DNA of 64,000 nucleotides from an uncultured Acidobacteriota bacterium (GCA_963723005.1 CAVRPA010000004.1:13053-77052); one strand, 5' to 3'. Counted from the stretch's first letter, positions 6,164 through 62,904 are shown. The notes: a model not told the origin generated them from the sequence alone. A program made the numbers and translations.

Positions 6164-6214
6164 CCGGACACCGGATACCGGATACCGGATACCGGACACC
6201 GGACCGGTACCGGC
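6164..6214. repeat. 7-nt tandem array (CCGGATA/CCGGACA), about 7 units
   Basis: Read directly: ccggaca ccggata ccggata ccggata ccggaca ccggacc ggtaccg. It lies in a divergent intergenic gap. Confidence 0.9.
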
Positions 6215-6300
6215 CTACGGATGTCGAGAACCTGACCACGGCTCCGACTTACAGACAAAAGCCCCCAATTCAGGGAGCGCCAGTCGGAAGGAGCCGCATC

Positions 6301-6732
6301 GTGACCATCGCCACCCCAACCTCAACCGTCAGCCAGTCCCGACCGTTCCGCAGCACCATCGCCGTGGTGGTGGGCTTTCTCTCGGTCGCGGTCCTGTCGC
6401 TCGCGACCGATCAGCTGTTGCATGTGCTCAACGTCTACCCGCCCTGGGGCGAGCCGATGTGGGAGACCAGCCTGAACCTCCTGGCCCTCTCCTATCGAAC
6501 CGTCTACGCCATCGTCGGCGGCTACATCACGGCGATGCTGGCGCCGCACGCGCCGATGCGCCACGTGAAGATCGTCGCGGTTCTGGGGCTGATCGCTGGC
6601 ACGGCCGGCGCGATTACCGCCATCAGCCTGGCCGACTTCGGGCCGAACTGGTATCCGATCGCGCTCGCGGTCACCGCGTTCCACACCGTGTGGCTTGGCG
6701 GCAAGCTGTACGAGTCGCGCCAAAGCGCGTGA
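6301..6732 (+). CDS. hypothetical small membrane protein (about 4 TM segments)
   Basis: 143-aa ORF with a GTG start, four hydrophobic stretches and GC3-rich codon use. No family recognised. Confidence 0.55.
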   Translation: MTIATPTSTVSQSRPFRSTIAVVVGFLSVAVLSLATDQLLHVLNVYPPWGEPMWETSLNLLALSYRTVYAIVGGYITAMLAPHAPMRHVKIVAVLGLIAGTAGAITAISLADFGPNWYPIALAVTAFHTVWLGGKLYESRQSA

Positions 6733-6736
6733 TGAA

Positions 6737-6773
6737 GGCTTGGGTCTTGAGTCTTAGGTCTTGGGTCTGGCTT
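6737..6773. repeat. 7-nt tandem array (GGTCTTG family), about 5 units
   Basis: ggcttgg gtcttga gtcttag gtcttgg gtctggc, starting immediately after the stop at 6732. Confidence 0.9.
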
Positions 6774-6891
6774 CGTCGGCGGAGTCGGGTGACCGGCTGG
6801 CCGACGCGCCGCTGGCGTGGGCCGGACGGATCATGCGGGCGACGCGGCACGCGCCCACTCGACTCAGTCGGACACCAGCCCCAGCCGCTGG

Positions 6892-8365
6892 CTACCGCGT
6901 CAGCGACGCGTCGGCCTTGCCCGAGTAGTTGATGAACACGGTCTTGATGTCGGTGAAGAAGTTCAGGCCTTCCTCCGCCATCTCGCGTTCGCCGACGCCG
7001 GTGGACTTGGTCCCGCCGAACGGCAGCTGCGCTTCGCCGCCGACGGTGGGCTCGTTGACGTGCACCATGCCGACTTCCACGTCTTCGATGAAGCGCATCA
7101 CCGCGGTGATGTCCTGCGTGAAGATCGAGGTGGTGAGGCCGTACTCGACGCCGTTGGCTTTCGTCAGCGCCTCTTCGAGGGTCGAGGCCACGGCCACGGA
7201 CAGCACCGGCCCGAAGATCTCTTCCTGGAAGATGCGCATCGCCGGGTCGACGTCGTCGAAGATGGTCGGGGCGATGAAGTAGCCCTGCGCGAGATGCTCG
7301 GGACGCACGCCGCCGGTGAGGAGCGTCGCGCCTTCCTGCTTGCCGGTCTCGATGTAGCCCATCACCGTGGACCACTGCTTGTCGGCGATCGACGGCCCCA
7401 TGTCCATCGTCGTCGTCGAGCCCGGGCCCGACCTTGATCTTCTGGGCCGAGGCGACGAGCCGATCGACCAGCGCGCGCTTGATGTCGGGATGCGCGATGA
7501 CGCGCGAGGTGGCGGTGCAGCGCTGGCCGGTGGAGCCGAACGCGCCGCCGTGAATGGCCGCGGCCGCCTTGTCGAGGTCGGCGTCCGGCATCACGATGAC
7601 GGCGTTCTTGCCGCCCATCTCGCAGGTGACCTTGGCGCCGCGCTGCGCGGCCTTCACGTAGAGCTCGCCGCCGACGCGGTTCGAGCCGGTGAACGAGATG
7701 GCGCGCAGCGCGGGCGCGTGCACCATCGCCTCGCCGACCTCGGGTCCGGAGCCGACGACCATGTTGAAGACGCCGCGGCGGCAGCCCGGCCTCTTCGTAG
7801 ACCTCGGCGAGGAGCGCCGCGGTGGCGGGCACCAGCTCCGACGGCTTGAAGACGACGCAGTTGCCGGCGACGAGGGCGGGGGCCGACTTCCACACCGGGA
7901 TGGCCCAGGGGAAGTTCCACGGGGCGATGAGCCCGACGACGCCGAGCGGCTGGCGCAGGGTGTAGGCGAAGGTGTCGCGCGCTTCGGAGGGCAGGGTCTT
8001 GCCGCCCATGCGGAAGCCTTCGCCCGCGTAGTACTCGAGCAGCGAGATGCCCTTGGTGACCTCGCCGTGCGCCTCCTTCAGCACCTTGCCCTCTTCGCGG
8101 GTCAGGGTCCGGGCGATCTCGTCGACTCGCCGGCGGGCGATCTCGGCGGCGCGCCACAGCACCCGGCCGCGCTCCGGTCCGGGCGTCTTCTTCCAGGCCG
8201 GCCAGGCCGCCGTGGCGGCCTCGATGGCGCGGCCGCACGTCGGCGGCCGTGGCCAGCGGGAACTCGGCGATCACGTCGGAGGTGTCGGCGGGGTTGATGT
8301 TGCGCGTGACCTCGGTCGGACGCGGGGTGAAACCAGGTGCCGTTGATGTAGGAGCCGGTGTGCAT
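6892..8365 (-). pseudogene. NAD(P)-dependent aldehyde dehydrogenase, frame-disrupted (about 4 breaks)
   Basis: Minus ORFs 8102..8365, 7654..8274, 7362..8162, 6671..7762 and 6892..7407 join into one ~490-aa ALDH ([47 protein letters not shown]). Breaks lie near 8300, 8232, 7790 and 7410. Confidence 0.85.
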
Positions 8366-8460
8366 AGCCTTGGAAGACTAGCGTACCCGCGGACCCGCGG
8401 GGTCTGGCACGATCCCCCGGTTTTTGCAGCAGTTTCTGCAATTCGCGCGGTGGTCGCGAT

Positions 8461-10950
8461 TCACTGGCGCGACGATGGCGTTGGGCCTGCTGGACACGCC
8501 AGCAGGTCCGCCGATAGCGTCTTGCGGAAGGCCTCGGCCTCCGCGCCGGTGCGCTCCAGATCGTCTCTGGCCAACGCCGCAGCGGCTTGCCGCAGGTGTT
8601 CGCATGCCCGAGCGTCCTGCCTGGCCTTCCGCTCCAGCGAGGCGAGCTGCACAAGGTACTGGGCAAGTTCCAGCTGGCCTTGTGCGTCGAGCGGTCGGCG
8701 CGATTCGGTGATGGCCAGGGCTTCACGCGTCCCCGAGAGGGCGTCGTCGTAGTTCCCCATGTCGGCGTAGGTGGCGGCCAGCAGCGAATGGGCGTACGCC
8801 AGCCGGCCGCGCAGGAAGTCGTCCTTGGGATCCGAATCGGACAATTTCTGACGGACGGCCAGGCTCTGCTCGAGGCTGACGGCCGCCTCCTTCAGCTGGC
8901 CTTTCTGTCTGTACAGCCCTCCGAGACTCGAGCGGTCCTGCGCCAGGTCCAGTTGCGCCTGGCGGCTGCCAGGCGCCTGGGCGACACGCCGCTGATCGAT
9001 CTCCTCGGCGCGCCGGTGGTGGACCAGCGCCTGATCCAGATCACCCGCTCGGCGATACTGCTCGCCCAGATACTTCGCGACCAACGCGACGTTACGTTGC
9101 CGATCTGGATCGTCGGGCCGCTCGGCCAAAAGCGATTCGAACACCTCGCCGGCCTTCAACCACAACGGAATGGCCTGTCCGGGCCCGGCTCCCGAAGGCG
9201 CCAGCGTCGCCTGCCAGAAGTAAGCCGTCCCCAGCAGTCGGGCCGCCTCGGCATCGCCTGCTCCGCCTGCATTGAGTCGCTCGGCAAAAGACTGCGCTTC
9301 GGCGGCGACGGCCATCGCCTCCCCAGATCGGCCAAGGGCAGTGAGCGTTCCGACCAGCGAAAACTGCGTGCGCGTCAACTCCATGGCAGCACTCTTCGAG
9401 CGGTCCGCTGCCGGCGTCAGCACCGCAATCGCCTTCCGGTAACTGCTCACCGCGCCTTCGCGGTCGCCCAGGTTTGTTTCGCTCGGGTTGCCTTGCACGG
9501 CAGCAATGCGCTTGTAGGCCATCCCCAGTTCGAGACTCAGGGCGTCATCCCGCGTGTCCCGGGCGAGCACTTCCAGGTACTTCAACGCCTCGGCGACGAT
9601 CTTCTGCCGCACCGGTGTCGAGCCCGGAAGCGGTCGCACCGCATCGTGAATGTCGAAGATGAGCGTATTCGCCAGCTTTCGCACGTCGCTGAAGCGTTGA
9701 TCGGCGCGGTCGCGCTCGGCGATTGCCCGCCGCGTCTGCACGACGGAGACGCCGAGGGCGGCGAGAATCGCAAGCACCGACACGACCGAGGCGCCGACGA
9801 GCGCCCGATGCCGGCGCGCCAGGGTTGCCACGACGTAGGCGAACGATGGTTCGCGAGCCACCACTACCTGGCCGGACAAATGCCGCCCGAGGTCGTCCGC
9901 CAATTCCTGCGCGGACCCGTAACGCCGGGTTGAGTCCTTGTCCATCGCCTTGAGAACGATGGCGTCGAGATCGCCTCGCAGCTCCGACGTCCGCGCCCCC
10001 GGTTGGCTGGCGGCCAGGACGGCACTCGGCCGCGACACCGGACCTTCCATCACCGCTTTCACCACCTCGTCGAGCGGCCGTCCCGCGGTTTCGTAGGGAA
10101 CGCGCCCTGCAAGCAACTCGAACAGCAGCACGCCCAGGGCATACACGTCGTCGGCAACGCTGGCCGGGAGGCCGCGGATCTGCTCGGGGCTCGCGTAGTT
10201 CGGCGTCAGCGCCCGGAGCCATCCGGAGGTGGTTTGCTGAATGCCTTCGGCGGGGTCGATCAACAGGCGGGCGATGCCGAAGTCGAGGATCTTCGGGACG
10301 CCGTCAGGCGTGACCAGGATGTTGGCCGGCTTCAGATCCCGATGCACGATCGAGTGCCGGTGCGCGTACTGAACTGCCCGGCAGACCTGCTGGAACAGAC
10401 GCAGCCTTGTGTCGAGGTCGGCACTGCGCTCCCGGCAGAACGTCGTGATGGGCAGCCCCTCGACGTACTCCATCACCAGGTAAGCAAACCCATCCTCGGT
10501 GAGCCCGCCGTCGATGAGCGTGACGATGTGGGGATGATGGAGCGCGGCGAGGTGCTGGCGCTCGGCGTTCAACTGCTTCAACGAGGCCCGGTGCCACCTG
10601 GCGGCGGTGACGATCTTGATGGCCACCTGCTGTGCGAAAGCGGGGTCGTCCCGCTCCGCGCGGTAGACCACGCCCATGCCTCCCGATCCGACGCTCTCGA
10701 GCAAACGGAAGCCGCCGATCGTCCGCCCGGCCAGCGACGGCGTGGCGTCCCCGGTGATGGCGCCATTGACCCAGGGCGTGGACAGGAATCGCTCGTCGAG
10801 TGGCGCGGCGGCGATCAAGGACTCGACCTCCCGTACCAGCTCCGGCTCATCACGGCGCTTCTCGGAGAGCACGCGCATCCGCTCCGCGGCGTCCAGCCCT
10901 TCGACATGAGCGTAGAGTTCCTCGACCTGGCGCCAGTGTTCGGTGTTCAC
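8461..10950 (-). CDS. Ser/Thr protein kinase with one TM segment and a C-terminal TPR-like domain
   Basis: Kinase subdomains GSGGMGVVY, AIK, HRDLKPANILV, DFGIA and SPEQ. TM segment ALVGASVVSVLAILAALGVSVV, followed by ~430 aa of helical TPR-like repeats. GTG start at 10950 is preceded by GAGGAG. The listed 1115-aa ORF is only an open-frame extension across the sigma gene. Confidence 0.85.
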   Translation of the reverse strand: MNTEHWRQVEELYAHVEGLDAAERMRVLSEKRRDEPELVREVESLIAAAPLDERFLSTPWVNGAITGDATPSLAGRTIGGFRLLESVGSGGMGVVYRAERDDPAFAQQVAIKIVTAARWHRASLKQLNAERQHLAALHHPHIVTLIDGGLTEDGFAYLVMEYVEGLPITTFCRERSADLDTRLRLFQQVCRAVQYAHRHSIVHRDLKPANILVTPDGVPKILDFGIARLLIDPAEGIQQTTSGWLRALTPNYASPEQIRGLPASVADDVYALGVLLFELLAGRVPYETAGRPLDEVVKAVMEGPVSRPSAVLAASQPGARTSELRGDLDAIVLKAMDKDSTRRYGSAQELADDLGRHLSGQVVVAREPSFAYVVATLARRHRALVGASVVSVLAILAALGVSVVQTRRAIAERDRADQRFSDVRKLANTLIFDIHDAVRPLPGSTPVRQKIVAEALKYLEVLARDTRDDALSLELGMAYKRIAAVQGNPSETNLGDREGAVSSYRKAIAVLTPAADRSKSAAMELTRTQFSLVGTLTALGRSGEAMAVAAEAQSFAERLNAGGAGDAEAARLLGTAYFWQATLAPSGAGPGQAIPLWLKAGEVFESLLAERPDDPDRQRNVALVAKYLGEQYRRAGDLDQALVHHRRAEEIDQRRVAQAPGSRQAQLDLAQDRSSLGGLYRQKGQLKEAAVSLEQSLAVRQKLSDSDPKDDFLRGRLAYAHSLLAATYADMGNYDDALSGTREALAITESRRPLDAQGQLELAQYLVQLASLERKARQDARACEHLRQAAAALARDDLERTGAEAEAFRKTLSADLLACPAGPTPSSRQ

Positions 10951-10994
10951 CTTGGACTCCTCGCCTGATCGGACGGATCGATCCCCGTCGCCCT

Positions 10995-11588
10995 TCACAC
11001 GTTGCTGGTGAGTTCCCGGTGCAGCCAGGCGCGCGCGAAAGCCCACTGACGTTTCACCGTCACGGGAGCCACGCCCAGCAACGTCGCCGTTTCGTCCACG
11101 GTGAGGCCGCCGAAGTAGCGCAGTTCCACGACCCGTGCCGGCGCCGGTGAGTGGGCGGCGAACCGGGTGAGCGCTTCGTCGAGGGCGATGAAATCGACCT
11201 GAAGGTCGATTCCTGCCGAGTGGGCATCGTTCAACTCGATCGGCGCCAGCCCCGCCCCCCGCTTCAGCGCCAGCCTGCGCCGGGCGTGATCGACGAGAAT
11301 CCGGCGCATGACCGTCGCCGCCGCCCCGTAGAAGTGGACGCGGTTGTTGAAGCCTGCGCCGCTCTGCTGGGCGAGCCGGAGGTAGGCCTCGTGCACCAGC
11401 GCGGTTGGCTGCAGGGTGTGTCCGTTCCGTTCGTGCTGAAGGTAATGGTCGGCCAGCTGCCGCAACTCGGCGTAGACGAGCGGCACGAGCTCGTCGAAGG
11501 CGCGGGCATCGCCGTCGCGCCATTGGGCCAGGAGGTGGGTGACGTCGGACACAGTCGGGGTAGCTCCGCCAGAGTCTACGCCATCCAC
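10995..11588 (-). CDS. ECF-type RNA polymerase sigma factor of the kinase-associated family
   Basis: 197-aa ORF. N-terminal signature DVTHLLAQWRDGDARAFDELVPLVYAELRQLA, region 2 HEAYLRL, region 4 VVELRYFGGLTVDETATLLGVAPVTVKRQW. No anti-sigma gene is adjacent; a kinase gene follows 44 bp downstream. Confidence 0.85.
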   Translation of the reverse strand: MDGVDSGGATPTVSDVTHLLAQWRDGDARAFDELVPLVYAELRQLADHYLQHERNGHTLQPTALVHEAYLRLAQQSGAGFNNRVHFYGAAATVMRRILVDHARRRLALKRGAGLAPIELNDAHSAGIDLQVDFIALDEALTRFAAHSPAPARVVELRYFGGLTVDETATLLGVAPVTVKRQWAFARAWLHRELTSNV

Positions 11589-11641
11589 CCGGCCCCAAAT
11601 GCCAATGAGACCGTCCGGCCGCTTTCTGCGCCAGGTCCAAC

Positions 11642-14600
11642 ATGTTGAGATCCGGGCGCACCCTTGTCACGCTGCTGCTCCTTGCGGCCCTGCCCGGGCC
11701 CTGGCAGCCGGCGGCTTTCGCGCAACAGGTCTGCGTGCGGACCCCTGGGTACTGGCAGACGCATCCTGCTGAATGGCGCGCCCCGGCCCTGGTGCTTGGC
11801 CGGGCCAACTACCCGTCCCACGTCTACGTGCAGGCGCAACTGCTGGACCTGCTGCGGCTGCAGGCTAAAGGCGACGCCAGCGTCATCCTGGCCACTCAGC
11901 TGATTGCGGCGAAACTGAACGTTGCGGGCGGCGCCAGTCCGCTTCCGGTGGCGCAGGCCGTGACGCGCGCCGATGCGCTGCTCGGCGCCTTTGTCTCAAC
12001 GCTGCCGTACCGTACCAAAACCAACACGCCCATCGGGGCCGACATGGTGACGACGGCCGACCTGCTTGCCGCGTATAACCGGGGAGAGCTGCCCGGTTCC
12101 TGCGGCGCCGGCAATACCCCCCCCATCGCTCAGGCCGGGCGCGACCAGTCCGTGGCGCTCGGCAGTCTTGTCACGCTCGATGGAAGCGGATCCACCGACG
12201 CCGACGGTCAGCAGCTGACCTTCGCGTGGTCGTTCTCGTCGCGGCCGTCTGGGAGCGCGGCGGCGCTGTCGTCACCAACGGCGGTGATGCCGACCTTTAC
12301 TGCCGATCGACCCGGCACCTATTCGCTGCGGCTCGTCGTCAACGATGGCCAGGCGAGCAGCACGCCCGACGTTGTCGAGATCTCCACGCTCAACTCGAGC
12401 CCGATCGCTGACGCCGGGCCGGATCAGTCGGTTCCCGTCGGCACGTCGGTGCAGGTCAATGGTGTCGCGTCGAGCGATCCGGACGGGGATTCGCTCACCT
12501 ACGCCTGGTCGCTGCTGTCCGGTCCTGCGGGCACGCAGGCAACTCTCACGAATCCCGCCGCCGTGGCGCCTTCATTCGTAGTCGATGCGCCAGGCAACTT
12601 CATCCTCCAGTTGATCGTCGCAGACCCGGGCGGATTGCAGAGCGCGCCAGACGTGGTCACCGTGTCCACCGCGAACTCGCCCCCGGTGGCGCATGCAGGC
12701 GCCGACACAACGGCGGTGCTCGGCGCCGCAGTAACGCTCGACGGCTCCACGTCGACAGACGTCGACGGCAACCCGCTGACCTTCGCCTGGACGTTCACGT
12801 CGCTACCGGACGGCAGCGTCGCGACCTTGACCAATCCATCTTCCGCCACGCCGACCTTCACCATTGACGTGTCCGGTGTCTACGTGGTGCAGCTGATCGT
12901 GAACGACGGCACGGTTGCCAGCGCACCGGACACCGTGGTGGTGGCGACGACGAACTCCCGGCCCGTCGCTCGCGCGGGCCCGGACCGGGACGCCATCGTC
13001 GGCGTCGGTGTCACGCTCGACGGCAGCGGCTCAACCGATGTTGACGGCGCAGCCGTTGACGTATCTCTGGGCGCTGACGGCTCGGCCCGTCGGCAGCACC
13101 GCAGCGTTGTCCGACAACACCGCCGTGATGCCGGCGCTCGTGCCCGATCTTCCGGGCACTTATGTCGCGCAGCTGATCGTGAACGACGGCACGCTCGACA
13201 GCGATGCCGACACCGTCACCATCACCACGGCGGCGCCTTCGAACCGGGCGCCGGTTGCGAATGCCGGGCCTGATGCGACGGTCCCGCTCGCCGCCATCGT
13301 TCAACTCGACGGCGGAGGCTCGAGCGATCCGGATGGCGACGGGCTGTCGTACCGCTGGTCGCTCGTGACCCGGCCCGCGGGCAGCGCCGCGCAGCTCACC
13401 GCGACGGACATCGCGGCGCCGACATTTGTCGCGGATCGCGCCGGCACCTACGTCGCTCAGCTGATCGTCCGGGACGGGCAGGTAGACAGCGCGCCCGACA
13501 CCGTGACCATCTCCACCGGGAACTCGATGCCGGTGGCGCTCGCTGGTGTGGACCAAACGGTGGCGCGGCAATCGACCGTACAGCTCGATGGCGGCGGATC
13601 GAGCGACGCCGACGGCGGCGTCCTGCTCTACTCATGGTCGCTGCTGTCCCGGCCGGCCGGCAGCACGGCCACGCTGTCGAACCTGACGATCGTGAATCCG
13701 ACGTTCGTGGCCGATCTCGACGGTGTCTACGTGGCGCAGCTGACCGTCTCGGACGGCTCGCTGGTGAGTGCGCCCGATACCGTGGCCATTACCGCCGGCC
13801 CCGGAGCGGATCTCAGCGATCACGATGCCGGTGGTTCCCTCCACGCAGTCACCGGGAAGCCAGAGTCGGCTGGTACGTCTGATGTGGAGAACCTCGGCCC
13901 GTTCGCCGCGGAGCAGGTGACCGTTCATGCCCCCGTGCCGGCGGGGTACACGCTGATCGGCTTCGACACGAGCGGCAATGGGATATGGGACCCGGCGACC
14001 GGCATCTGGACGATCGGAACGGTGGCCGCATGCGACCTTGAAGCGACTGGTGATTGAGCGCGACAGTCAACACTCACCGGGCCTTACGACCTGAGCGCGA
14101 GAATCACCAACAGCAGCGCGCCTGATCCCGACCTCGCCAACAACACGGCCAGCGCCATCGTCACCCCGAATCGCAATGCGGACCTCCGCGCGTCGTTCCA
14201 CAACTTCAGCCCCGGAACCCGGAGCCCGGGTGAGGTCATCGGGATGCTGTTCGACGTGTACAACGATGGACCCTCTATCGCGACCGATATCGTGGCATCG
14301 TTCGCCATTCCGGCGGGCTTCACCATCGTCTCGGCCAGCGTCAGCCACGGGACCTACGACGGCGCCACCGGGGTGTGGACGATCGGCGACTCGCCGCGTG
14401 GCCGACCGGCAAGGCTGACCCTCAACCTGCGGGTCAATGCCACCGGTTCGATCGATCTGCGGGGGGCCATCACCGGCAGCAGCCAACCCGATCCCAATCT
14501 GGCCAACAACGTCATCGTTCCGGAGCGAATCAACCGGCCGCCGGTCGCGAATGCGGGCGCCGACCAGGCAGTCAGCACCAACGGCGCCGTCCTGCTCGAT

Positions 14601-31040: not shown

Positions 31041-31056
31041 GGCGGCACCAGTCCGA

Positions 31057-37906: not shown

Positions 37907-37937
37907 GGCCGCTGCAGAATGTGCCAGCGGCCGCCTT

Positions 37938-38476: not shown

Positions 38477-38501
38477 GGCGAATTGATCTTAGCGCGGGCG
38501 A

Positions 38502-38616: not shown

Positions 38617-38673
38617 TCTGTGCAACTCCCTGCTTGACCTCGGCGCCGCGACCGATACATTAGGCAGAACCCC

Positions 38674-40116: not shown

Positions 40117-40120
40117 GGTC

Positions 40121-40236: not shown

Positions 40237-40408
40237 GACTGTCTCCCCCTGCCCGATCTGGCGTTTCTGCCGCTTGTTAACAAATCGAACAAATTAGCGC
40301 GCTTCTGTCGGATTGGGCCCTTGACCGCTGAATCACGGCCTGTTTTTGCCGCTATTCAGGTCCATTCCGTCAGAAACGACGCTCAATCTGGCGGAATCAA
40401 AAATCTGC

Positions 40409-40456
40409 TTGACGTATCGAATTCATCTCCTTTAGTTTGTCAACTCGTTAAACAAA
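40409..40456 (+). promoter_or_regulatory. candidate sigma-70-like promoter plus operator upstream of the ROK regulator
   Basis: TTGACG (40409-40414), then 17 nt, then TTAGTT. It is followed by the imperfect palindrome TTTGTCAAC-TCG-TTAAACAAA (40436-40456), 9 nt before the ATG at 40465. A related perfect palindrome TTGTTAACAA lies at 40274-40283. Confidence 0.3.
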
Positions 40457-40464
40457 TAGAACCC

Positions 40465-46786: not shown

Positions 46787-46809
46787 AGCGTTCAAGTGGA
46801 GGAACCGTC

Positions 46810-55243: not shown

Positions 55244-56831
55244 GACGAACGGCGCTGCGTGTGCTGGTCCTGCTGCTTGGTGTGCTGACGGTGACGGTCG
55301 GCATCTCCGGCCGCTCGCCGGCAACCGTTCAGAGCACCGCGCCGGTTGCCTGGGCGCGCGGCATCGAGGGACAGCGCAAGGCCGACCTTGGTGACGGCAC
55401 CTATCTCAATCCGATCCTTGCGGGCGATCACCCCGACCCGTCGATCCTGAAGGACGGCGACACCTACTACATGACGTTCTCGTCCTTCGACGCCTATCCC
55501 GGCCTGGTGATCTGGCAGTCGCGCGACCTCGTCAACTGGCAGCCGGTCGGCCCCAGCCTGTTCAAGAACGTCGGCTCGGTGTGGGCGCCGGATCTCGTGA
55601 AGCACGGCTCGCGCTACTACATCTACTTCCCGGGCGTTGGGCCGTATCGATCCAACTACGTGATCTGGGCCGACAGCATTCGCGGTCCCTGGAGCGAGCC
55701 GATCGATCTGAAGGTGGGGCAGATCGATCCCGGTCACGCCGTCGGCCCCGACGGCCGCCGCTATCTGTTCCTCAGCGCCGGACAAGTGGTGCCGCTGGCC
55801 GACGATGGGCTGTCGGTGACGGAAAAGCCGCGCAAGGTCTACGACGGCTGGAAGTTCCCGGACGACTGGGTGGTCGAGGGCTTCGCGCAGGAGGGCCCGA
55901 AGATCCTGAAGCGCGGCGACTACTACCACATGGTGCTGGCCGAAGGCGGCACCGCCGGTCCGCCCACCGGGCACATGATCGTCTCGGCGCGCTCGAAGTC
56001 GATCGACGGCCCGTGGGAGAACTCGCCCCACAACCCGATCGTCCGCACGCAGTCCGGCGCCGAGCGCTGGTGGTCCAAGGGACACGGCACGCTCGTCGAA
56101 GGCCCCGACGGCGGCTGGTTCATGGTCTATCACGCCTACGAGAACGGCTACCTGACGCTCGGCCGTCAGACGATGCTCGAGCCGATCGAGTGGACCGACG
56201 ATGGCTGGTTCCGGACCGCGGGCAGCGATCCGGCCAAGCCGATCAAGATGCCGGCGCGCTCCGCGGGGCCGCACGGCATGGCCTTCTCGGACGATTTCAC
56301 CACCGACCGCATGGGCATCCAGTGGAGCTTCTACAAGGGCTCCACCGATGACCGCGCGCGCTATCGCTACGAGAACGGGACGCTGGTGCTGAAGGCGAAA
56401 GGCGCCCGCCGGCCGACGCGTCGCCGCTGTGGTTCGTCAACGGCGACCAGGCCTACGAGATCGAAGTCGAGATCGACGCCGATCCCGGCGCCAGCGCGGG
56501 CCTGCTGCTCTTCTACAGCAGCCGGCTGTACGCGGGCCTCGGCTTCTCGGCGAAGAACTTCTTCATGCACAGCTATGGCCTGGACCGTCCGCAGGGCAAG
56601 CCGCCCGACATCGGCCAGCGGCTCCACATCCGCCTTCGCAACGACCATCACATCGTCACCATGCACTACAGCCCGGATGGCCAGACGTGGCGGAAGTACG
56701 ACCGTGGGATGGAACTGTCGGGCTATCACCACAACGTGGCGTACGAGTTCCTGAGCTTGCGCCCGGCTCTGTACGCGGCCGGCACCGGCGAGGTGCGCTT
56801 CCGCGGGTTCAAGTACCGGGCGCTGCCGTAG
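55216..56831 (+). CDS. GH43 glycoside hydrolase (beta-xylosidase/arabinofuranosidase type) with C-terminal ConA-like domain; one frame break near 56405
   Basis: GDHPDPSILKDGDTYYMTFSSF, WAPDLVKHGSRYYIYF, EGPKILKRGDYYHM and GHGTLVEGPDGGWFMVYHA. ORF 54424..56754 joins ORF 56565..56831. The start overlaps the upstream gene end. Confidence 0.85.
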
Positions 56832-56833: not shown

Positions 56834-56996
56834 ACTAGGCTTCAGGGTCTAGGCTTAGGCCTCGGGTTCTAGGGTTCTAGGGTTCTAGAGTTCTAGGGTC
56901 CCAAGTCCCCAGATCCCCCGATCCCCCGATCCCCAATCCCCCGATCCCCGATCCCCGATCCCCGATCCCCGATCCCTGATCCTGATCCCCGATTTA
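56834..56996. repeat. largest composite 7-nt array: G-rich block (GGCTTAG/GGGTTCT), then C-rich block (GATCCCC x about 12)
   Basis: ctaggcttcagggtctaggcttaggcctcgggttctagggttctagggttctagagttctaggg, then tcccaagtccccagatcccccgatcccccgatccccaatcccccgatccccgatccccgatccccgatccccgatccctgatcctgatccccgat. It starts 3 nt after the stop at 56831. Confidence 0.95.
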
Positions 56997-57099: not shown

Positions 57100-57488
57100 A
57101 TGCAGGCTGCTGCTTCTTCCCCGACGATGGCTGTCGGACTTCGATGCGCTGGGCAGGCTGAACGAGGCCTACATCGACGCGGTGCGCCGCGCCGACGCGG
57201 TGGGTTTCGAGTCGCTGCTCGCGGCCGATTTCCTGTGCACGATGGCGGATGGCTCGTTCCTGGATCGCGCGCAGTTCCTCACGGCGTCGCAAAGGCGGCA
57301 AAGCTGCCATCGCTGCAGGCGCACGACGTCAACATCCGCATCATGGGCGACGTCGCCATCATCCACGCGCAGCACGACGTTCGAGCTTGGGTGATGGCAT
57401 GCCGAGGACCGGCCGCTATACCGACATCTGGGCAAAGCGGGATGGCCGGTGGCAGGCGGTGGCCGCGCACGTCACCAGAAGACAGTAA
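57100..57488 (+). pseudogene. SnoaL/DUF4440-like NTF2-fold protein, frame-disrupted (about 3 breaks)
   Basis: GGAGG lies before the ATG at 57100. Segments WLSDFDALGRLNEAYIDAVRRADAVGFESLLAADFLCTMADGSFLDRAQFL, AKLPSLQAHDVNIRIMGDVAIIHA and GRYTDIWAKRDGRWQAVAAHVT lie in three frames (ORFs 57062..57394, 57013.., 57249..57488). Confidence 0.6.
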
Positions 57489-57567
57489 TCAGGGGTCAGG
57501 GATCAGGGATCAGGAGTCAGGGATCAGGAAGCAGGCTCAAGACCTCAAGACCCAAGACTCAAGACTT
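57489..57567. repeat. composite 7-nt arrays (GGGATCA block, then CTCAAGA/CCCAAGA block)
   Basis: atcaggggtcagggatcagggatcaggagtcagggatcaggaagcagg, then ctcaagacctcaagacccaagactcaagactt, between convergent stops at 57488 and 57577. Confidence 0.95.
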
Positions 57568-60263: not shown

Positions 60264-60468
60264 GCCCCCTGGCGCATCATCTACCTTTTTGGCTCATACC
60301 GCACTGCCGACTCCCCGCTTAGGAGGAAACCAGAGGTTTCAGTGCGGACCGTACTCCACAGTGCTTTCTGCTGCATTTCCCGACGCGCGTGTGCCCCTCT
60401 GTTTTCACTTCATTTGCCCGTTTTTGCCCATACCTAGAGGCACCGACAGTTCTTCCGCAGATAGCCGC

Positions 60469-60855
60469 ATGTCAGGCCGAAGCAGTGAGTTAGCCTCTAG
60501 CGTGGACATGTCGCGCGCAATCCCGATCTTCTGTACACCGGTACTGATCGCATGGGTGTGGACCGTCTGGCTTCGCGGAGGCAAAGAAACCCGTTCAGGA
60601 TGGCGCCGCAAGGCTGTAGGTATCGCTGCGCTCGGATTGTCCGGCTGCGCGGGCCTCTACTACACGGGTTTGTTGTTATTCCTCTTCGCCGGTCGTGAGG
60701 CCTTGCCGGTGCGGGACACGGTTGGACTGGCCGCGGCGTATTTGTGGTTGGCAGGTGCCGTCGGCGCGGTTGTCGGCGTGGGGCCAGGACGCTTGTGGGT
60801 TGTTCTCGGATTGCTGATGGTCCCTTTCTTGTGGATACCGACCGTGTTCCTGTGA
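60469..60855 (+). CDS. hypothetical small membrane protein in a lower-GC patch
   Basis: ATG at 60469 in the frame of ORF 60289..60855. About four hydrophobic helices. No family recognised and the coding status is uncertain. Confidence 0.4.
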   Translation: MSGRSSELASSVDMSRAIPIFCTPVLIAWVWTVWLRGGKETRSGWRRKAVGIAALGLSGCAGLYYTGLLLFLFAGREALPVRDTVGLAAAYLWLAGAVGAVVGVGPGRLWVVLGLLMVPFLWIPTVFL

Positions 60856-61173
60856 CGGGCGGGCCGAGGTTGGTAGGACCATCTCTAGAGTTGTGAATCG
60901 ACTTCCACGGAGATGGCCCGAGGGTGTGAATACCCACCACGCCTCGTCTGGTGGGGATGGTTGGTTTGCGGCGCAATACCCGGCATGTCCGCGTCTAGGA
61001 ATGGTACCTCCCGCCCTTGCGTTTGCTCCTCATTACTCGCTTTTTGCCCATGCCCCGATCGAAGCGCGCTGAAGCTCCGCGAGCCAACCGTTCGCTGGTC
61101 CGGACTTGCGCCACCCGCAGCGGCGATCCCGAGGTTGCTGGTGTCATCACAAAACCCGCTCCTTTTCGCGCTG

Positions 61174-61210
61174 GTCAACCGGTCAATATGTCAGAGGTCA
61201 ACACGTCAGC
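61174..61210 (+). repeat. five direct ~8-nt repeats GTCA(A/G)(C/T)
   Basis: GTCAAC, GTCAAT, GTCAGA, GTCAAC and GTCAGC start at 61174, 61182, 61190, 61197 and 61205 (spacing 8, 8, 7, 8). Confidence 0.7.
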
Positions 61211-61420
61211 CGAATCACACACTCCTCAGTCGTCGGCCGCTGTGGGTTGTGGTATTCATCCTGATCGAGAACGCCAGAACGGGAGGTGTGTGGTGGCCAG
61301 TGAGACCCTCACTCGATTCCGGGTCCATGCTGCGAGCGTGCTGCTGACCGCCGGCGGCGCGACGACTATCCTCGCGGCCGACGCCGTCGTCCAGGCGCGC
61401 GACGCGCACGGCGTGACGCG

Positions 61421-61672
61421 GTGACGCCGACGGACCTCGCCTTGCTGTTGCCGGTCGTGGGGGCCATCGCGGTCGCGATCGCCGTGGTGGTCGCCGTCAT
61501 CCGCACGAGCCGACGGCGGTCGGGCGCGCTGGGCGCGGGCGATGCGGGCTCGGGTGGCGCGGGGTACCTGTTCGTCGACGGCGACGGCGCGGCCGGCAGT
61601 GGCCACAGCCACGGCCACGGGGAGGCCTGCGACGGGCACGACGGCGACGGCGGCGACGGCGGCAGCGACTGA
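61421..61672 (+). CDS. possible small TM protein with Gly/Asp/His-rich tail
   Basis: 83-aa ORF: LALLLPVVGAIAVAIAVVVAVI helix, then GHSHGHGEACDGHDGDGGDGGSD. There is no homology support, so this could be a non-coding open frame. Confidence 0.25.
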   Translation: MTPTDLALLLPVVGAIAVAIAVVVAVIRTSRRRSGALGAGDAGSGGAGYLFVDGDGAAGSGHSHGHGEACDGHDGDGGDGGSD

Positions 61673-62077
61673 AACAAAAAGCGAGGACGGTAGCCCAGCT
61701 ACCGTCGCTGCCGCCACCGACCTCGACTTGAAACGGATCGGCTTCATCACGCCCGACGTGGAGGAACATTGACCCGGTGGCAGTGGGTGGCGTTGCTGGT
61801 GCTGCTGTACGGGGTGCCGATCGTCGTGTTTGGCCGCTCCCGGAGAGAACATGGCGGTCGCAATGCTGATCGGCGCCGCGCTCGGGGGCCTCGTGCGCTT
61901 CTACCGCGGCCGCCACGACAGGAAGGGCACCCCATGAGCAAACGCCAGCCGATCGCCACCGTCGCGGTGTGCGCCGCCACAGCCGCCGCCCGCGCTGGAC
62001 ATACACCAGCCGCGGGCGTGAGGAACTTACGGAATTATTAGGTTGGACGGTCTGGTGTCTCTGAGGCGCGCGGGCCG

Positions 62078-62230
62078 CTGCACTTCGTGGGGGCGCTGGT
62101 GGCAGGCGTCCCCGGCGGCTTACCGTGGGCCGTCGCTGGCGCTCTCATCACCGCCGCGCTTGCGGCATCGCTGCTGCCGGCTCGACGGGCGACGAGGGTG
62201 GCTCCGATGGAAGTGATGCGAAGCGAATAG
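62078..62230 (+). pseudogene. remnant of the C-terminus of an FtsX/MacB-type (ADOP-like) ABC permease
   Basis: The frame translates to LHFVGALVAGVPGGLPWAVAGALITAALAASLLPARRATRVAPMEVMRSE-stop, the last TM helix plus the conserved LPARRA.RV.PM..LR.E tail. No upstream permease body or start codon is present. Confidence 0.5.
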
Positions 62231-62340
62231 CGCGGATTCTTCGATTAGAGCAGAGCTGGCCGTTGAATTTCACCTAAGAGCGTCGATAAGGTCGCGCCGG
62301 ATCACACAGGCGTGGCACGTCGATTGGATGTTTAACGGGC

Positions 62341-62715
62341 ATGACGAGAACCATGCTTGCGCTGGCCATCTCGACCACTGTCGCGTGCGGGCTCGATGCC
62401 TCAGCTCAGCGCACCTCGCGCTCCAGGACGCTCCAGGTGCAGGTGACCGCCTACTGCGATCAGGGCGAGACCGCCTCGGGCGTGCAGACCAGGCGTGGCA
62501 TCGTAGCTGCCGATCCGGGCGTGCTGCCGCTCGGCAGCCGCATTCGCGTCGAGGGGCTCGCAGCCCACAATGGCACCTACGACGTGGAGGACACGGGGCG
62601 CGCGGTGAAGGGACGTATCATCGACATCTTCATGCGCGACTGTGCCGCGGCGAAGCGATTCGGCCGCCAGACCGCTCGCGTGCAGGTGTTGAGCGTTGGC
62701 GACGACTCGCGTTGA
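62341..62715 (+). CDS. 3D-domain (MltA-like double-psi barrel) protein, secreted
   Basis: 124 aa with a signal/lipobox-like N-terminus. VTAYCDQGETASG...GIVAADPGVLPLGSRIRVEG...YDVEDTGRAVKGRIIDIFM matches the 3D domain pattern. Confidence 0.8.
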   Translation: MTRTMLALAISTTVACGLDASAQRTSRSRTLQVQVTAYCDQGETASGVQTRRGIVAADPGVLPLGSRIRVEGLAAHNGTYDVEDTGRAVKGRIIDIFMRDCAAAKRFGRQTARVQVLSVGDDSR

Positions 62716-62822
62716 GCCCAAGGGGCATCGCGTGCGCTGCCGTCCACGCGGCGGACGCCAAGCAGATCGAATACCGCGGGTTGCGGAAACGGGCGGCGTG
62801 TAGGTGAGCAGTCCGGGCGAGC

Positions 62823-62904
62823 CTCCGGTCTCCGACTTCCGACTCCCGACTCACGTCTCAAGCCCTCAAGACCCAAGACCCAAGACCCAAGACCTAAGAC
62901 CCCG
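62823..62904. repeat. composite 7-nt arrays (CTCCGAC/CTCCCGA block, then CCCAAGA block)
   Basis: ctccggtctccgacttccgactcccgactcacgtc, then tcaagccctcaagacccaagacccaagacccaagacctaagacccc. Confidence 0.95.

Follow-up and report, generated by a model that had tools for sequence, protein, structure and literature searches.

The window, by which we mean the whole stretch of 64,000 nucleotides analysed, comes from a high-GC, soil-type bacterium and carries 13 tandem-repeat arrays between its genes (Table 1). Ordinary genes flank them (peptidase, cytochrome c, thioesterase, ROK regulator), and the gene starting at 29541 encodes a cytochrome c domain.

Table 1 Coordinates, repeat units and gene context of the tandem-repeat arrays in the window
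Feature	Position	Strand	Units	Setting
Array 1	6164-6214		(CCGGAYA) x about 6 and a CCGG-rich tail; TRF period 7, 5.9 copies	Divergent gap between minus-strand gene (start near 6006) and plus-strand gene 6301-6732; non-coding by frame profile
Array 2	6737-6773	+	GGGTCTT-type units x 4.3; + strand G-rich	Convergent gap; starts 5 nt past stop (6732) of + gene
Array 3	24161-24250		(CGGCAGA) x 4.4 then (GATCCCT/GACCCCT) x 7.4	Occupies most of a ~157-nt divergent gap
Array 4	25486-25600	+	(GAACCCTA) x 4.6 (period 8), ~40 nt non-repeat, (ACCCAAG) x 5.7; sense strand C-rich	Stop TAG 25492-25494 within first unit; last base 2 nt ahead of ATG (25603) of DPP-IV-type peptidase gene
Array 5	29091-29186		(GGTCTTR) x 5.7 then (CYCAAGM) x 6.6; G-block and complementary C-block	Convergent gap; holds left gene's stop TAG 29098-29100
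Array 6	29616-29750	-	+ strand: (ACTCCCG) x 15 and (AGCCCCA) x 3.3; TRF score 189; sense strand of both flanking minus-strand genes G-rich (CGGGAGT)	13 nt after stop at 29763; 75 nt before cytochrome c start at 29541
Array 7	34526-34602		Degenerate CCTYGAAC/CTGTTGAA units and (CCGGACA) x 2.6	Convergent gap; + gene ends TGA around 34504-34506, minus-strand gene 34617-35567
Array 8	37938-38023	+	(CTTGGGT) x 3.9 then (GGAGTCG) x 5.6; wholly G-rich on + strand	Fills convergent gap; abuts stop (38024) of minus-strand thioesterase gene
Array 9	38502-38616	+	(CAAGACT) x 2.9, (CTGCCGT) x 4.3, (CCCAAGC) x 4.9; + strand C-rich	Divergent gap between thioesterase start (38476) and promoter of SLT-domain gene
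Promoter-like site of SLT-domain gene	38634-38661	+	TTGACC-16-TACATT	Starts 18 nt past array 9
Array 10	40121-40239		(GGCTCTA) x 5.3, (GGGTTCT-type, period 7-8) x 5, (CAAGACC) x 6.9 with CAAGCCC; G-block then C-block	Co-directional gap; 5 nt past SLT gene stop (40116)
Array 11	56834-56996		TAGGCYT-type units, (GGGTTCTA) x 4.5 (period 8), (GATCCCC) x 12; G-block then non-complementary C-block	Co-directional gap; 3 nt past a stop
Array 12	57489-57567		(GGGATCA) x 5.9 then (CTCAAGA) x 4.3	Convergent gap
Array 13	62823-62904	+	(CCGACTC) x 3 then (CAAGACC) x 5.1; + strand C-rich	Co-directional gap

Period-7 arrays are abundant in the window and intergenic

An earlier reading made from the DNA without database searches (the sequence-only reading) had listed 13 arrays, and all 13 were recovered at the same positions by Tandem Repeats Finder (TRF), in agreement with direct reading. 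Twenty period-7 arrays with a score of at least 40 were present in the window, far above chance given an average of 0.03 over 30 dinucleotide-preserving shuffles; in the same comparison periods other than 7 were near background. A six-frame coding profile placed all 13 arrays in non-coding gaps and showed that arrays 4 and 5 each take in the stop of the reading frame upstream, both points as the sequence-only reading had described, and its exclusion of CRISPRs, coding sequence and classic REP units also holds. The proposed pervasiveness between genes holds as well. In a survey covering 1.18 Mb of high-GC loci, both related and unrelated, only 13 of 217 period-7/8 arrays were inside called genes while genes made up 68% of the DNA. 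Divergent, convergent and co-directional gaps are all occupied, but not alike as had been supposed: among gaps of at least 90 nt, classed by us from the six-frame profile, arrays were present in 5/6 convergent, 3/8 divergent and 5/18 co-directional gaps (Fisher p=0.03). The sixth convergent gap contains a 34-nt palindrome. Enrichment in convergent gaps would be equally expected if such gaps were the most permissive DNA.

Matching arrays were found at matching loci in six independent contigs (L119, L168, L199, L200, L201 and L202), including long contigs spanning the arrays, and since independently assembled relatives carry them at corresponding loci an assembly artefact is excluded. Once the repeats were masked, no similarity was detected between the flanks of any two window arrays, nor any terminal inverted repeats or target duplications common to the flanks, and a search of the window against Rfam matched no family. 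As the masked comparison links no two flanks, the arrays do not belong to any larger mobile element. An origin as assembly errors or as fragments of a MITE or other transposon might have been suspected from short-read contigs that often end in arrays (L119 at both ends), from several (CCCAAGA)n loci that begin at positions 1-36 and from frame switches in the window typical of long-read indel errors; given the six concordant assemblies and the unrelated flanks, it is effectively refuted.

Units cluster around CCCAAGA

The units of the window are CCCAAGA, CTCAAGA, GCCCCAA, CTCCCGA, GATCCCY, GGYTCTA, CCGGAYA, TGCCGTC and their complements, a small vocabulary reused at unlinked sites, as the sequence-only reading had found. 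Its 7-nt unit length applies except in three blocks of period 8 (GAACCCTA at 25486-25521, TCTCGGGT at 40152-40192 and GGGTTCTA at 56864-56899). The weakest is array 7, in which clean CCGGACA units number only 2.6. Of the units that had been called interchangeable, most are one-substitution neighbours of CCCAAGA (CTCAAGA, CCTAAGA, CCCAAGC, CCTCAAG), joined by a few unrelated ones; this agrees better with slippage acting on mutated units than with a designed code. The blocks at 24199-24250, 56906-56993 and 57488-57528 read GGGGATC/AGGGATC and match the GGGNATC consensus of known intergenic repeats, the GATCCCC of array 11 being GGGGATC on the complement (PMC4692102). Arrays of (CCCAAGA)n turn up in MAGs and isolates bearing the labels of at least 13 phyla, a recurrence for which the commonness of heptamer SSRs may be the whole reason.

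Orientation and predicted structure at gene ends

Across phyla, composite arrays ran from a G-block to a C-block in 19 cases and in the reverse order in 3 (16:3 outside the window, p about 0.001-0.004). Relative to genes, the published orientation rule is a G-rich sense strand after a stop codon and a C-rich sense strand before a start codon; where an array lay no more than 80 nt from a gene end, the rule was obeyed in 87 cases and broken in 58 (p=0.02), a modest preference (60:40) built on ad hoc gene calls with uncertain start positions. Array 6, a G-rich and SD-like (GGGAG) array ahead of a start codon, breaks the rule. Arrays were close to stops rather than starts at a ratio of 106:39, an excess inflated by uncertain start calls, and in the window arrays 2, 5, 8, 10 and 11 begin 0-5 nt from stop codons. 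ATG and GTG together occur 0.10 times per 100 nt on the C-rich strand and 1.92 times on the G-rich strand, and the C-rich strand is almost without predicted structure.

Because strong hairpins were predicted for only 2/13 arrays and G3 runs are absent from 6/13, no single structure is common to all. Long hairpins were predicted at arrays 5 and 10, for array 5 on either strand (RNA MFE -66.2 and -71.0 kcal/mol, z -9.4 and -7.9) and for array 10 of moderate strength (z -3.3 and -4.9). Hairpin scores were z -3.4 for array 1, where self-complementary CCGG gives a modest hairpin, and z -3.1 for array 7; array 12, a G-block followed by a non-complementary C-block, had no unusual hairpin. Many G-rich strands could fold as G-quadruplexes, G3N1-7 motifs being present in 7/13 arrays, among them the G-rich strand of array 3 and the minus strands of arrays 6 (125 nt of motif) and 11 (77 nt); the plus strand of array 6 is almost without secondary structure (-9.3 kcal/mol over 145 nt). 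Canonical terminators were not enriched (5 found, 7.6 expected). Hairpins were predicted downstream of 22% of SLT orthologues relative to 7% of coding controls, a weak enrichment, and the skew between their arms had the expected direction in only 11/15.

Arrays vary between strains and mark rearrangements

Per 10 kb, the window has 3.1 arrays, relatives at 70-84% identity have 0.19, and those at less than 70% identity have 0.70, built of other units; period 7 was the commonest in the window and in every identity class. Orthologous gaps in relatives at 88% and at 78% identity or less usually lacked an array, and some relatives carried other hairpin-forming pairs at the equivalent position (e.g. 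CACGAAG...CTTCGTG, CACAGAG...CTCTGTG). The comparison of copy number among strains that the sequence-only reading had suggested revealed exactly one additional CCCAAGC unit at array 9 in L199 and unit-sized indels at arrays 4 and 10 in the same strain, array 4 being shorter by ~10, 4 and 10 nt. In L119 (99% amino-acid identity) array 9 has one unit fewer and a different middle block. Whole blocks are also replaced: in L199 the right block of array 3 has CCCGGAT, changed in concert, in place of CCCTGAT units, alongside an additional (AAAGGCA)n block, and the gap after the SLT gene contains five different arrays in five strains (window, L199, L202, L201 and L168). Array 8 is identical in L199 and L200.

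Varying copy number, together with the location of arrays 3, 4, 6 and 9 immediately upstream of start codons or promoters, would suit contingency or rheostat loci in which copy number tunes or switches the adjacent gene, as at hmw1A/hmw2A of Haemophilus influenzae. This analogy, drawn by the sequence-only reading, fits poorly and we consider it very unlikely, as most arrays follow stop codons or occupy convergent gaps beside ordinary metabolic genes. The promoter-like site of the SLT-domain gene, the sole sigma-70-type match in 24000-41000 and kept in orthologous loci down to ~70% identity, is outside the repeats, and array 9 is upstream of its predicted -35 element and not inside the promoter spacer. 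A contingency role was likewise rejected for GGGNATC repeats by Rehm et al. (PMC4692102).

Recurrence of one unit at many unlinked sites, and of (CCCAAGA)n across phyla, could also indicate binding sites for a trans-acting factor within a global regulatory or chromosome-organising network, with a nucleoid-associated or regulatory DNA-binding protein, Rho, ribosomal protein S1 or a CsrA/Csp-type protein as candidate binder. Rho loading (rut) sites are C-rich, G-poor, unstructured RNA, which RNA of the C-rich strand resembles. Similar proposals exist for TAACTGA repeats (PMC4679880) and Geobacter heptanucleotides (PMC2700814). However, units differ at equivalent positions and are swapped between strains, as would hardly be expected if a reader recognised a specific sequence, the cross-phylum distribution may have the cause given above, and no candidate protein was found, making such a network improbable.

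Arrays mark sites of gene flips or losses between strains. The thioesterase gene and its promoter (38022-38530, 0.5 kb) are inverted relative to L201, L202 and L121, with the boundaries inside oppositely oriented arrays: on the left array 8, of which the left part aligns forward with L201 and the rest aligns inverted with the downstream C-array of L201, and on the right array 9, between 38530 and 38550. A 5.4-kb segment missing from L199 and L202 has its left breakpoint at array 5 and its right breakpoint 14 nt from array 7. Larger strain-specific indels terminate at arrays 2, 5 and 7, synteny with L201 is lost at 6748, within array 2, and the gene that arrays 11 and 12 enclose in the window adjoins the SLT gene instead in L121.

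A probable slippage origin with orientation filtered by transcripts

On balance, the arrays are probably slippage-made heptanucleotide SSRs whose orientation has been filtered by transcript constraints and which serve as putative 3'-end structures, leaders and recombination substrates. They are lineage-specific SSRs and belong with the cyanobacterial STRR and with the GGGNATC repeats known from Xanthomonas and Nostoc. Slipped-strand mispairing and recombination between arrays, in part visible in the strain comparison, would create and alter them, and point-mutated units amplified to new blocks would yield a vocabulary clustered on CCCAAGA; slippage leaves the period of 7 unexplained. Arrays would persist only in DNA free of coding constraint and would expand until a stop or start codon is reached. 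A G-rich sense strand would be tolerated or favoured right after a stop codon, where it may fold as a hairpin with the following C-block or as a G-quadruplex, and a C-rich sense strand may be favoured before a start codon for its lack of structure and its near absence of ATG and GTG; from these two preferences the strand-symmetric order of G-block then C-block would follow. Probable roles of the arrays, in a region without canonical intrinsic terminators, are to form structures at transcript 3' ends and to act as neutral, start-codon-free leaders. Arrays with matching units in both orientations would provide homology for inversion or deletion of the intervening genes, as seen for one inversion.

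The same data could be attributed to a lineage-specific replication or repair bias that makes harmless, functionless 7-nt slippage products, with polarity and stop-codon hugging resulting from the purging of harmful insertions (G-rich, ATG/GTG-rich or structured leaders). Patchy distribution among relatives, rapid turnover, many unrelated units with no common structure, and relatives whose array-free orthologous gaps are evidently functional all accord with such by-products, and the start-codon contrast between the strands explains polarity through negative selection alone. The filling of five of the six convergent gaps (the sixth having its palindrome), the lack of terminator enrichment and the alternative hairpin-forming pairs in some relatives, which suggest a conserved structural slot, point the other way; none of these is decisive, and we hold the purely neutral or selfish account to be possible although rather unlikely.

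Comparison with known repeat systems

The hmw1A/hmw2A repeats of H. influenzae resemble the window arrays in having 7-nt tandem units upstream of a gene with slippage-varied copy number. Each genome of this host-adapted pathogen has the hmw repeats at one or two loci, which are surface-adhesin genes, whereas the window arrays are pervasive, mostly at gene 3' ends and beside housekeeping genes. REP/BIME elements are also intergenic, often after stops or between convergent genes, with hairpins that may stabilise or end transcripts, as predicted in silico for array 5. Enterobacterial REPs are imperfect ~35-nt palindromes of conserved sequence with a dedicated transposase (RAYT), in contrast to the tandem, mostly non-palindromic 7-mers of the window, which lack conserved flanks. 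Another related system is that of the short tandemly repeated repetitive (STRR) heptanucleotides of the cyanobacteria Calothrix, Anabaena and Nostoc, with several heptamers per genome in tandem in non-coding DNA at many unlinked sites; compared by units alone, they differ (e.g. CCCCAGT) and come from filamentous cyanobacteria of low to moderate GC.

The sequence-only reading knew of no such pervasive intergenic family, which is contradicted by three reports (PMC4692102, PMC4679880 and PMC2700814), so that the arrays, unmatched in Rfam, do match a described class of heptanucleotide repeats. The TAACTGA direct repeats described by MacGregor (2015, PMC4679880) in marine Beggiatoaceae, Cyanobacteria and Bacteroidetes are likewise intergenic tandem heptamers, abundant per genome and common to distant phyla without an evident transfer mechanism, as is (CCCAAGA)n in many phyla. 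Their sets are short (2-6 copies), AT-rich, of a single unit and mostly a few nucleotides upstream of start codons, whereas the window arrays are longer, multi-unit and biased to gene 3' ends. The Geobacter metallireducens genome paper (PMC2700814) annotated families of tandem heptanucleotides as putative regulatory elements, including GGGACCG x 4 at 49 sites and MTYCTGA x 5 at paired opposite-strand sites. These share with the window GC-rich tandem units, dozens of sites and some opposite-strand pairs, but are fixed at four or five copies, in some cases intragenic, and treated as discrete conserved elements.

Rehm et al. (2015, PMC4692102) described intergenic, G-rich heptameric SSRs of the GGGNATC type, with the unit GGGAATC in Xanthomonas and GGGGA(C/T)T in Nostoc PCC 7120; their paper also cites the Calothrix heptanucleotides and work from 2007 that found heptamers over-represented among the SSRs of bacteria. 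These repeats and the window arrays both consist of tandem 7-nt units over the chromosome, ~90% intergenic, close to or overlapping the stop codon of the upstream ORF, with convergent pairs able to form stem-loops, ordinary neighbour genes, and length and sequence that differ among close relatives. They also share the orientation rule of Rehm et al., in which the G-rich strand is sense after stops and antisense before starts. The window differs in that most units are outside GGGNATC (GGGTCTT, GGGAGTC, TTGGGGC, TAGAGCC, CCGGAYA, GACGGCA), several are concatenated per gap, six arrays lack G3 runs, there is no four-unit preference (3-15 copies) and the host lineage is another. Rehm et al. reported greater genomic stability around their repeats, whereas the window arrays coincide with rearrangement breakpoints, a contrast that counts against the explanation proposed here. 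The arrays are a new example of a described repeat class and not a new kind of element; specific to the window are the CCCAAGA-centred vocabulary, the G-then-C composites, the slippage of units and replacement of blocks, the occupation of 5/6 convergent gaps where canonical terminators are lacking, and the inversion of a gene between two arrays.

Heptamer arrays occupy the gaps between genes

All 13 heptamer arrays claimed in a sequence-only reading of the window were recovered by Tandem Repeats Finder (TRF), and their units were confirmed by direct reading. The window has 20 period-7 arrays scoring at least 40, whereas 30 dinucleotide-preserving shuffles of it gave 0.03 on average, and no other repeat period stood out in the same TRF comparison. 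The array units were mostly of period 7 and ran head to tail without spacers, with three blocks of period 8 (see table); copies per block varied between 2.6 and 15 without a peak at 4, and array 7 was the weakest of the 13. The GC content was 65-69% along the window (67% overall), its proteins look to be of acidobacterial type (e.g. a CarboxypepD_reg/OMP_b-brl_4 receptor), and at about one per 3 kb the arrays were unusually dense and diverse. Domain content, along with the frequency of such arrays in MAGs labelled Vicinamibacterales, suggests a Vicinamibacterales-like member of the Acidobacteriota; tblastn with window proteins yielded only distant matches among the (CCCAAGA)4-matched loci, and no exact match was found to the DPP-IV protein or to a 296-aa protein of the window. 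A single open frame at 45760-50301 combines a PfkB sugar-kinase domain (residues 2-297) with a CarboxypepD_reg and OMP_b-brl_4 TonB-type receptor, and is probably two genes or a gene with a mis-called start. Diverged direct repeats of 50-230 nt (71-85% identity) at 12159-13679 lie in coding sequence of the + strand and point to a protein with repeated domains.

The earlier judgement that the arrays are neither CRISPRs nor REP elements was upheld, as the units are 7-8 nt and abutting, compared with 23-50-nt identical repeats separated by unique spacers in CRISPRs, and there is no conserved palindromic unit, self-complementarity being confined to arrays 5 and 10 and, weakly, 1 and 7. Once the arrays were masked, no flank similarity was found between any two of them in the window; they are therefore not parts of a larger mobile element, and an origin from a mobile element or MITE (shared termini, terminal inverted repeats, target duplications) was rejected. 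A curated structured RNA family was likewise rejected as their identity, with zero family matches to Rfam 15 at the gathering score on both strands of the whole window.

All 13 arrays lay in stretches without coding signal in a six-frame codon-usage profile, in agreement with their assignment to non-coding DNA from sequence alone. This profile was used in place of crude gene calling, which in this high-GC DNA produced a shadow ORF at 33213-35396. Enrichment between genes was also seen in high-GC loci totalling 1.18 Mb, in which genes were called ad hoc: 13 of 217 arrays fell inside called genes, and genes made up 68% of the DNA. The analysis as a whole covered the 64-kb window and fragments of other genomes. 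The gene calls were from our own heuristics with uncertain start codons; the gap holding array 7 was verified by translation. Two arrays do run into the upstream stop, as had been noticed (TAG 25492-25494 and TAG 29098-29100 are contained in arrays), and array edges were close to genes, starting 0-5 nt after a stop at five gaps and in some cases ending 0-2 nt before a start.

Locations of the heptamer arrays and of associated features (window coordinates unless a locus of a related strain or other genome, L-number, is named)
Feature	Location	Context	Basis
Array 1	6164-6214	Divergent gap	Coding profile
Array 2	6737-6773	Convergent gap	Coding profile
Array 3	24161-24250	Divergent gap	Coding profile
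Array 4	25486-25600	Co-directional gap	Coding profile
Array 5	29091-29186	Convergent gap	Coding profile
Array 6	29616-29750	Co-directional gap, minus-strand genes	Coding profile
Array 7	34526-34602	Convergent gap	Coding profile
Array 8	37938-38023	Convergent gap	Coding profile
Array 9	38502-38616	Divergent gap	Coding profile
Array 10	40121-40236	Co-directional gap	Coding profile
Array 11	56834-56996	Co-directional gap	Coding profile
Array 12	57489-57567	Convergent gap	Coding profile
Array 13	62823-62904	Co-directional gap	Coding profile
Period-8 block GAACCCTA	25486-25521	Array 4	TRF and direct reading
Period-8 block GGGTTCTA	56864-56899	Array 11	TRF and direct reading
Period-8 block TCTCGGGT	40152-40192	Array 10	TRF and direct reading
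Inversion REARRANGEMENTS	38022-38530	Thioesterase (4HBT) gene and promoter	Strain comparison
Counterpart of thioesterase segment	L201 13259-13767		
Counterpart of thioesterase segment	L202 9999-10453		
Counterpart of thioesterase segment	L121 1-376		
Purine/pyrimidine block array	L123 100-290		
Purine/pyrimidine block array	L067 6105-6242		
Purine/pyrimidine block array	L079 1128-1253		
Purine/pyrimidine block arrays	L126, L129, L147	3' of SLT gene	

Arrays had been said to occur alike in divergent, convergent and co-directional gaps. They were indeed present in all three types, but not equally: among gaps of at least 90 nt in the coding profile, arrays were present in 5 of the 6 convergent ones, 3 of the 8 divergent ones and 5 of the 18 co-directional ones (convergent versus the rest, Fisher p=0.03). 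The sole array-free convergent gap (871-1020) contains a 34-nt imperfect palindrome at 930-963, which may be a conventional hairpin in a slot otherwise taken by an array. A consensus scan of 24000-41000 gave no excess of canonical intrinsic terminators (5 found versus 7.6 expected). The same region contains a single sigma-70-like promoter, TTGACC-16-TACATT at 38634-38661, upstream of the SLT gene (a + strand SLT-domain gene at 38674-40116, between arrays 9 and 10). This promoter-like site begins 18 nt past array 9, placing the array upstream of the -35 element, and orthologues with as little as about 70% protein identity retain it at their loci as CTTGAC...CCGATAnATTA. The lower-GC patch at 60271-62460 (GC about 0.65) was free of heptamer arrays, as first noted; it has nearly no coding signal in any frame and carries GC-rich period-9/15 repeats at 61601-61667.

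Arrays differ between strains by whole units

Orthologues of the SLT gene were present in 80 metagenomic loci. In L119, with a 99%-identical SLT gene, array 9 is one unit shorter and has a different middle block; an 85% relative (L121) has arrays on either side of the gene with units that differ from those of the window, and an 88% relative (L120) and nearly all relatives at or below 78% identity have no heptamer array at this gene. Array density per 10 kb was 3.1 in the window, 0.19 in relatives at 70-84% identity and 0.70 in those below 70%, which use other units (AACTCCC, AACCACC, AAGGACC); period 7 was dominant at every identity level.

Base-level comparison was performed with three long contigs of related strains (L199, L201 and L202; 91-97% nucleotide identity). 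Array 8 does not differ between L199, L200 and the window, L199 has a single additional CCCAAGC unit in array 9, and arrays 4 and 10 differ between strains by unit-sized indels. The units of array 3 changed in concert from CCCTGAT to CCCGGAT with gain of an (AAAGGCA)n block, and five strains have five different arrays in the gap 3' of the SLT gene. Change in copy number between strains, which the sequence-only reading had put forward as a check, therefore took the form of a single added unit, unit-sized indels, block replacement and concerted change (L199, L119, L168, L201, L202), which is the behaviour of slippage-prone simple-sequence repeats.

Because frame switches resembling long-read indel errors occur in the window and in L199, strain differences of 1-2 bases are to be distrusted; differences of 7 bases are atypical of such errors. 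Switches of the coding signal between frames were seen inside apparent single genes at 24331-25470, 33213-34506, 55381-56820 and 6931-8220, and in L199 the gene calls are fragmented and indels amount to about 1%; these switches are probably long-read assembly errors, and otherwise pseudogenes.

The comparison with contingency loci stood as regards the change in copy number between strains, but not as regards placement and neighbours, as the arrays lie outside reading frames, mostly 3' of stops or in convergent gaps, beside metabolic genes. A phase-variable locus is accordingly very unlikely, with array 9 located upstream of the -35 element and the neighbours being metabolic rather than surface or virulence genes.

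Arrays bound an inversion and coincide with other rearrangements

The thioesterase segment between arrays 8 and 9 has one orientation in the window, L199 and L200 and the reverse orientation in L201, L202 and L121, with collinear flanks on both sides. The left boundary of the inversion (37968-38022) is inside array 8 and the right boundary (38530-38550) inside array 9. These two arrays are mutual inverted copies (GGGTCTT/GGGAGTC versus CCCAAGA/CCCGACT), and the (GGGAGTC)n that adjoins the thioesterase stop in the window corresponds, in inverted form, to the (CCCGACT)n located 3' of the stop in L201. Recombination between oppositely oriented arrays would be the simplest explanation of this arrangement.

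L199 and L202 lack a 5.4-kb segment (29178-34615; in L202 the missing stretch starts at 29132), with one breakpoint in array 5 and the other 14 nt from array 7. The segment carries a gene for cytochrome c and others on the minus strand, as well as a large one on the + strand for a membrane-protein-like product, and is syntenic in the more distant L123 and L125; 27892-34612 is missing from L201. A 14.8-kb segment (8447-23266) is missing from L199, L201 and L202, and in L201 the left end of the gap is at 6748, inside array 2. One of several large ORFs in this segment encodes an RHS-repeat protein (19009-23196, 17 RHS repeats), and the segment is probably a strain-specific island and possibly a polymorphic toxin locus. 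In addition, a small gene between arrays 11 and 12 in the window adjoins the SLT gene in L121. By hand count, about 9 of 14 non-collinear breakpoints were at arrays, compared with arrays in about 40% of gaps, an enrichment that is suggestive only.

G-rich and C-rich blocks follow a preferred order

Where G-blocks and C-blocks (runs of heptamers that are G-rich or C-rich on the strand read) adjoin, G preceded C on either strand in 19 cases and followed it in 3 (p=0.0009; p=0.004 with the window left out); the counts were 3:0 for the window, 14:1 for multi-phylum loci and 2:2 for relatives. The order is kept in arrays 11 and 12, where the blocks are non-complementary, so hairpin formation is not the reason for it. 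It is equivalent to the rule that the sense strand is G-rich after a stop and C-rich before a start, and among gene ends no more than 80 nt from an array, 87 conform to this rule versus 58 that do not (p=0.02), a modest bias in 1.18 Mb with ad hoc gene calls.

No one predicted fold is common to all window arrays. Array 5, in which (GGTCTTR)n is followed by a complementary block to give a near-perfect inverted pair, is the only strong hairpin (MFE -66 to -71 kcal/mol, z -9.4/-7.9); array 10 folds moderately (z -3.3/-4.9), with weak self-complementarity in the CCGG-containing arrays 1 and 7. A hairpin or terminator is disfavoured as a general explanation because strong folding is limited to arrays 5 and 10; a conserved-hairpin-slot test 3' of SLT orthologues gave a weak outcome. 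The quadruplex motif G3N1-7 x 4 is found on the G-rich strand of 7 of the 13 arrays, and a G-quadruplex is predicted in the ViennaRNA MFE structure of 3 of these 7; G3 runs are missing from the other 6, for which reason quadruplex formation is disfavoured as a general explanation.

The C-rich strands are near structure-free (e.g. array 6, -9.3 kcal/mol across 145 nt) and have 0.10 ATG plus GTG per 100 nt versus 1.92 on the G-rich strand, and a C-rich leader is therefore without spurious starts as well as without structure. Stop codons per 100 nt were 2.9 on the G-rich strand versus 1.65. A function as back-up stops in all three frames is disfavoured, as this arrangement was found in only 40 of 268 arrays.

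Heptamer arrays in other genomes

A search for (CCCAAGA)4 in one genome per species returned at least 118 stretches. Among the matches listed, genome labels included Acidobacteriota (Vicinamibacterales, Blastocatellia, Terriglobia and others), Planctomycetota (Thermoguttaceae, Phycisphaeraceae), Verrucomicrobiota, Bacteroidota, Omnitrophota, Gemmatimonadales, Myxococcales, several Pseudomonadota, Actinomycetota and more; the carriers listed include complete long-read chromosomes, and (CCCAAGA)n arrays were common in listed MAGs labelled Vicinamibacterales. CCCAAGA was the sole heptamer scanned, so that its recurrence across phyla is no basis for calling it special. Period 7 was the commonest repeat period in the pattern-matched loci, the selected arrays aside, and the Vicinamibacterales, Thermoguttaceae and Phycisphaeraceae loci have the same vocabulary and the same layout of G-block then C-block as the window.

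Short-read contigs often start or end within arrays (L119 at both ends; L014, L018, L024, L037, L061 and L062 at their starts; L047 at its end), and metagenome assemblies of these lineages are therefore fragmented by arrays. Where relatives lack CCCAAGA arrays, they have tandem arrays of other short units in which a purine-rich block is followed by a pyrimidine-rich block, and which are hairpin-forming (e.g. CACGAAG(G)...CCTTCGTG and CACAGAG...CTCTGTG); in L067 and L079 a GGGTCTT array is flanked by such blocks.

Origin and possible roles

For more than 30 years heptanucleotide arrays have been noticed again and again in the genomes of bacteria, and we know of no accepted function or origin for them. 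Those of the window are tandem 7-mers that are intergenic, hypervariable by unit steps and polar, and that bound an inversion. A combined account of these observations is judged moderately probable. Slipped-strand mispairing and recombination between arrays would create and reshape the arrays, and their orientation would be filtered by selection on transcripts. The G-blocks, as quadruplexes alone or as hairpins with a C-block, would act at the 3' ends of transcripts in a part of the genome that lacks canonical terminators, and the C-blocks would be inert leaders; the unit length of 7 is outside this account. A strictly neutral version, in which the arrays have no role for the cell, appears rather unlikely, and factor-binding arrays, contingency loci and artefact share the probability left after the combined and neutral accounts.

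A more ambitious reading, which we consider improbable, is that in lineages (Vicinamibacteria-type Acidobacteriota, Planctomycetota and others) without canonical intrinsic terminators, G-then-C arrays make up a dedicated system, symmetric between the strands, that sets transcript boundaries and genome modules. Stalling or folding of the transcript (as a G-quadruplex, R-loop or hairpin) would fall to the G-block and loading of a conserved factor such as Rho to the C-rich, G-poor block, the occurrence of (CCCAAGA)n across more than 10 phyla would reflect recognition by conserved machinery and not chance, and inverted array pairs around genes would give rise to single-gene invertible cassettes.

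The window adds a high-GC, uncultured-type soil lineage with unusually dense and diverse arrays, and offers features that are directly testable: the G-then-C order across phyla, the near-full occupancy of convergent gaps in a region without canonical terminators, and arrays that bound an inversion and coincide with other rearrangements. If the arrays are terminators or leaders, as in the combined account, they would help to explain the poorly understood limits of transcription units in Acidobacteriota and Planctomycetota. If they are neutral, they are still of practical importance, as they break short-read assemblies and would serve as VNTR markers and recombination hotspots for the population genomics of abundant soil bacteria.

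Comparison with known heptanucleotide repeats

The initial impression of an undescribed kind of element was not sustained, as intergenic heptanucleotide arrays are already known (PMC4692102, PMC4679880, and Geobacter metallireducens, whose genome paper annotates tandem heptanucleotide families). Heptameric GGGNATC repeats were described in two Xanthomonas species and Nostoc PCC 7120 (Rehm et al. 2015, PMC4692102). Each Xanthomonas genome has about 185 GGGNATC-type sites, of which 89-93% are intergenic; they lie at a mean of 28 nt from the upstream ORF and at times overlap its stop. In these repeats the G-rich strand is the coding strand past stops and the non-coding strand ahead of starts, 70-75 convergent inverted pairs occur, and length and sequence differ between the two Xanthomonas species; G-quadruplex and i-motif formation was observed in vitro, most sites are transcribed, and the neighbouring genes are ordinary (PMC4692102). 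As cited in that paper, heptamers were found in 2007 (Mrazek et al.) to be over-represented among long SSRs of large high-GC genomes, polymerase slippage has been proposed as the cause, and heptanucleotides are known from Calothrix. TAACTGA arrays are common to Beggiatoaceae, Cyanobacteria and Bacteroidetes (MacGregor 2015, PMC4679880). In the literature searched, coverage of which is incomplete, no account was found of this CCCAAGA-type family or of heptamer arrays in Acidobacteriota or Planctomycetota (including Vicinamibacter and Luteitalea).

The window arrays have all of the defining features of the heptameric SSR class (Mrazek 2007; STRR; Rehm 2015). The strand rule near stops and starts (within 50 bp in Rehm et al.) and the convergent pairs are both seen in the loci analysed, the strand rule as a modest bias. 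Three window blocks fit GGGNATC (GGGGATC/AGGGATC at 24199-24250, 56906-56993 and 57488-57528), whereas most units do not, and the unit sequences also differ from those of the STRR of heterocystous cyanobacteria. G-quadruplexes were demonstrated by CD spectroscopy for the Rehm repeats, whereas the motifs in 7 of the 13 window arrays are predicted from sequence, and the preference for four units reported there is absent in the window. The window arrays therefore differ from the known class in their dominant units, in the many units concatenated per gap, in having no four-unit preference and in their association with rearrangements. They are a new, unusually rich case of the known class of intergenic heptanucleotide repeats, to which the present analysis adds observations on polarity, strain-level dynamics and array-bounded rearrangement.
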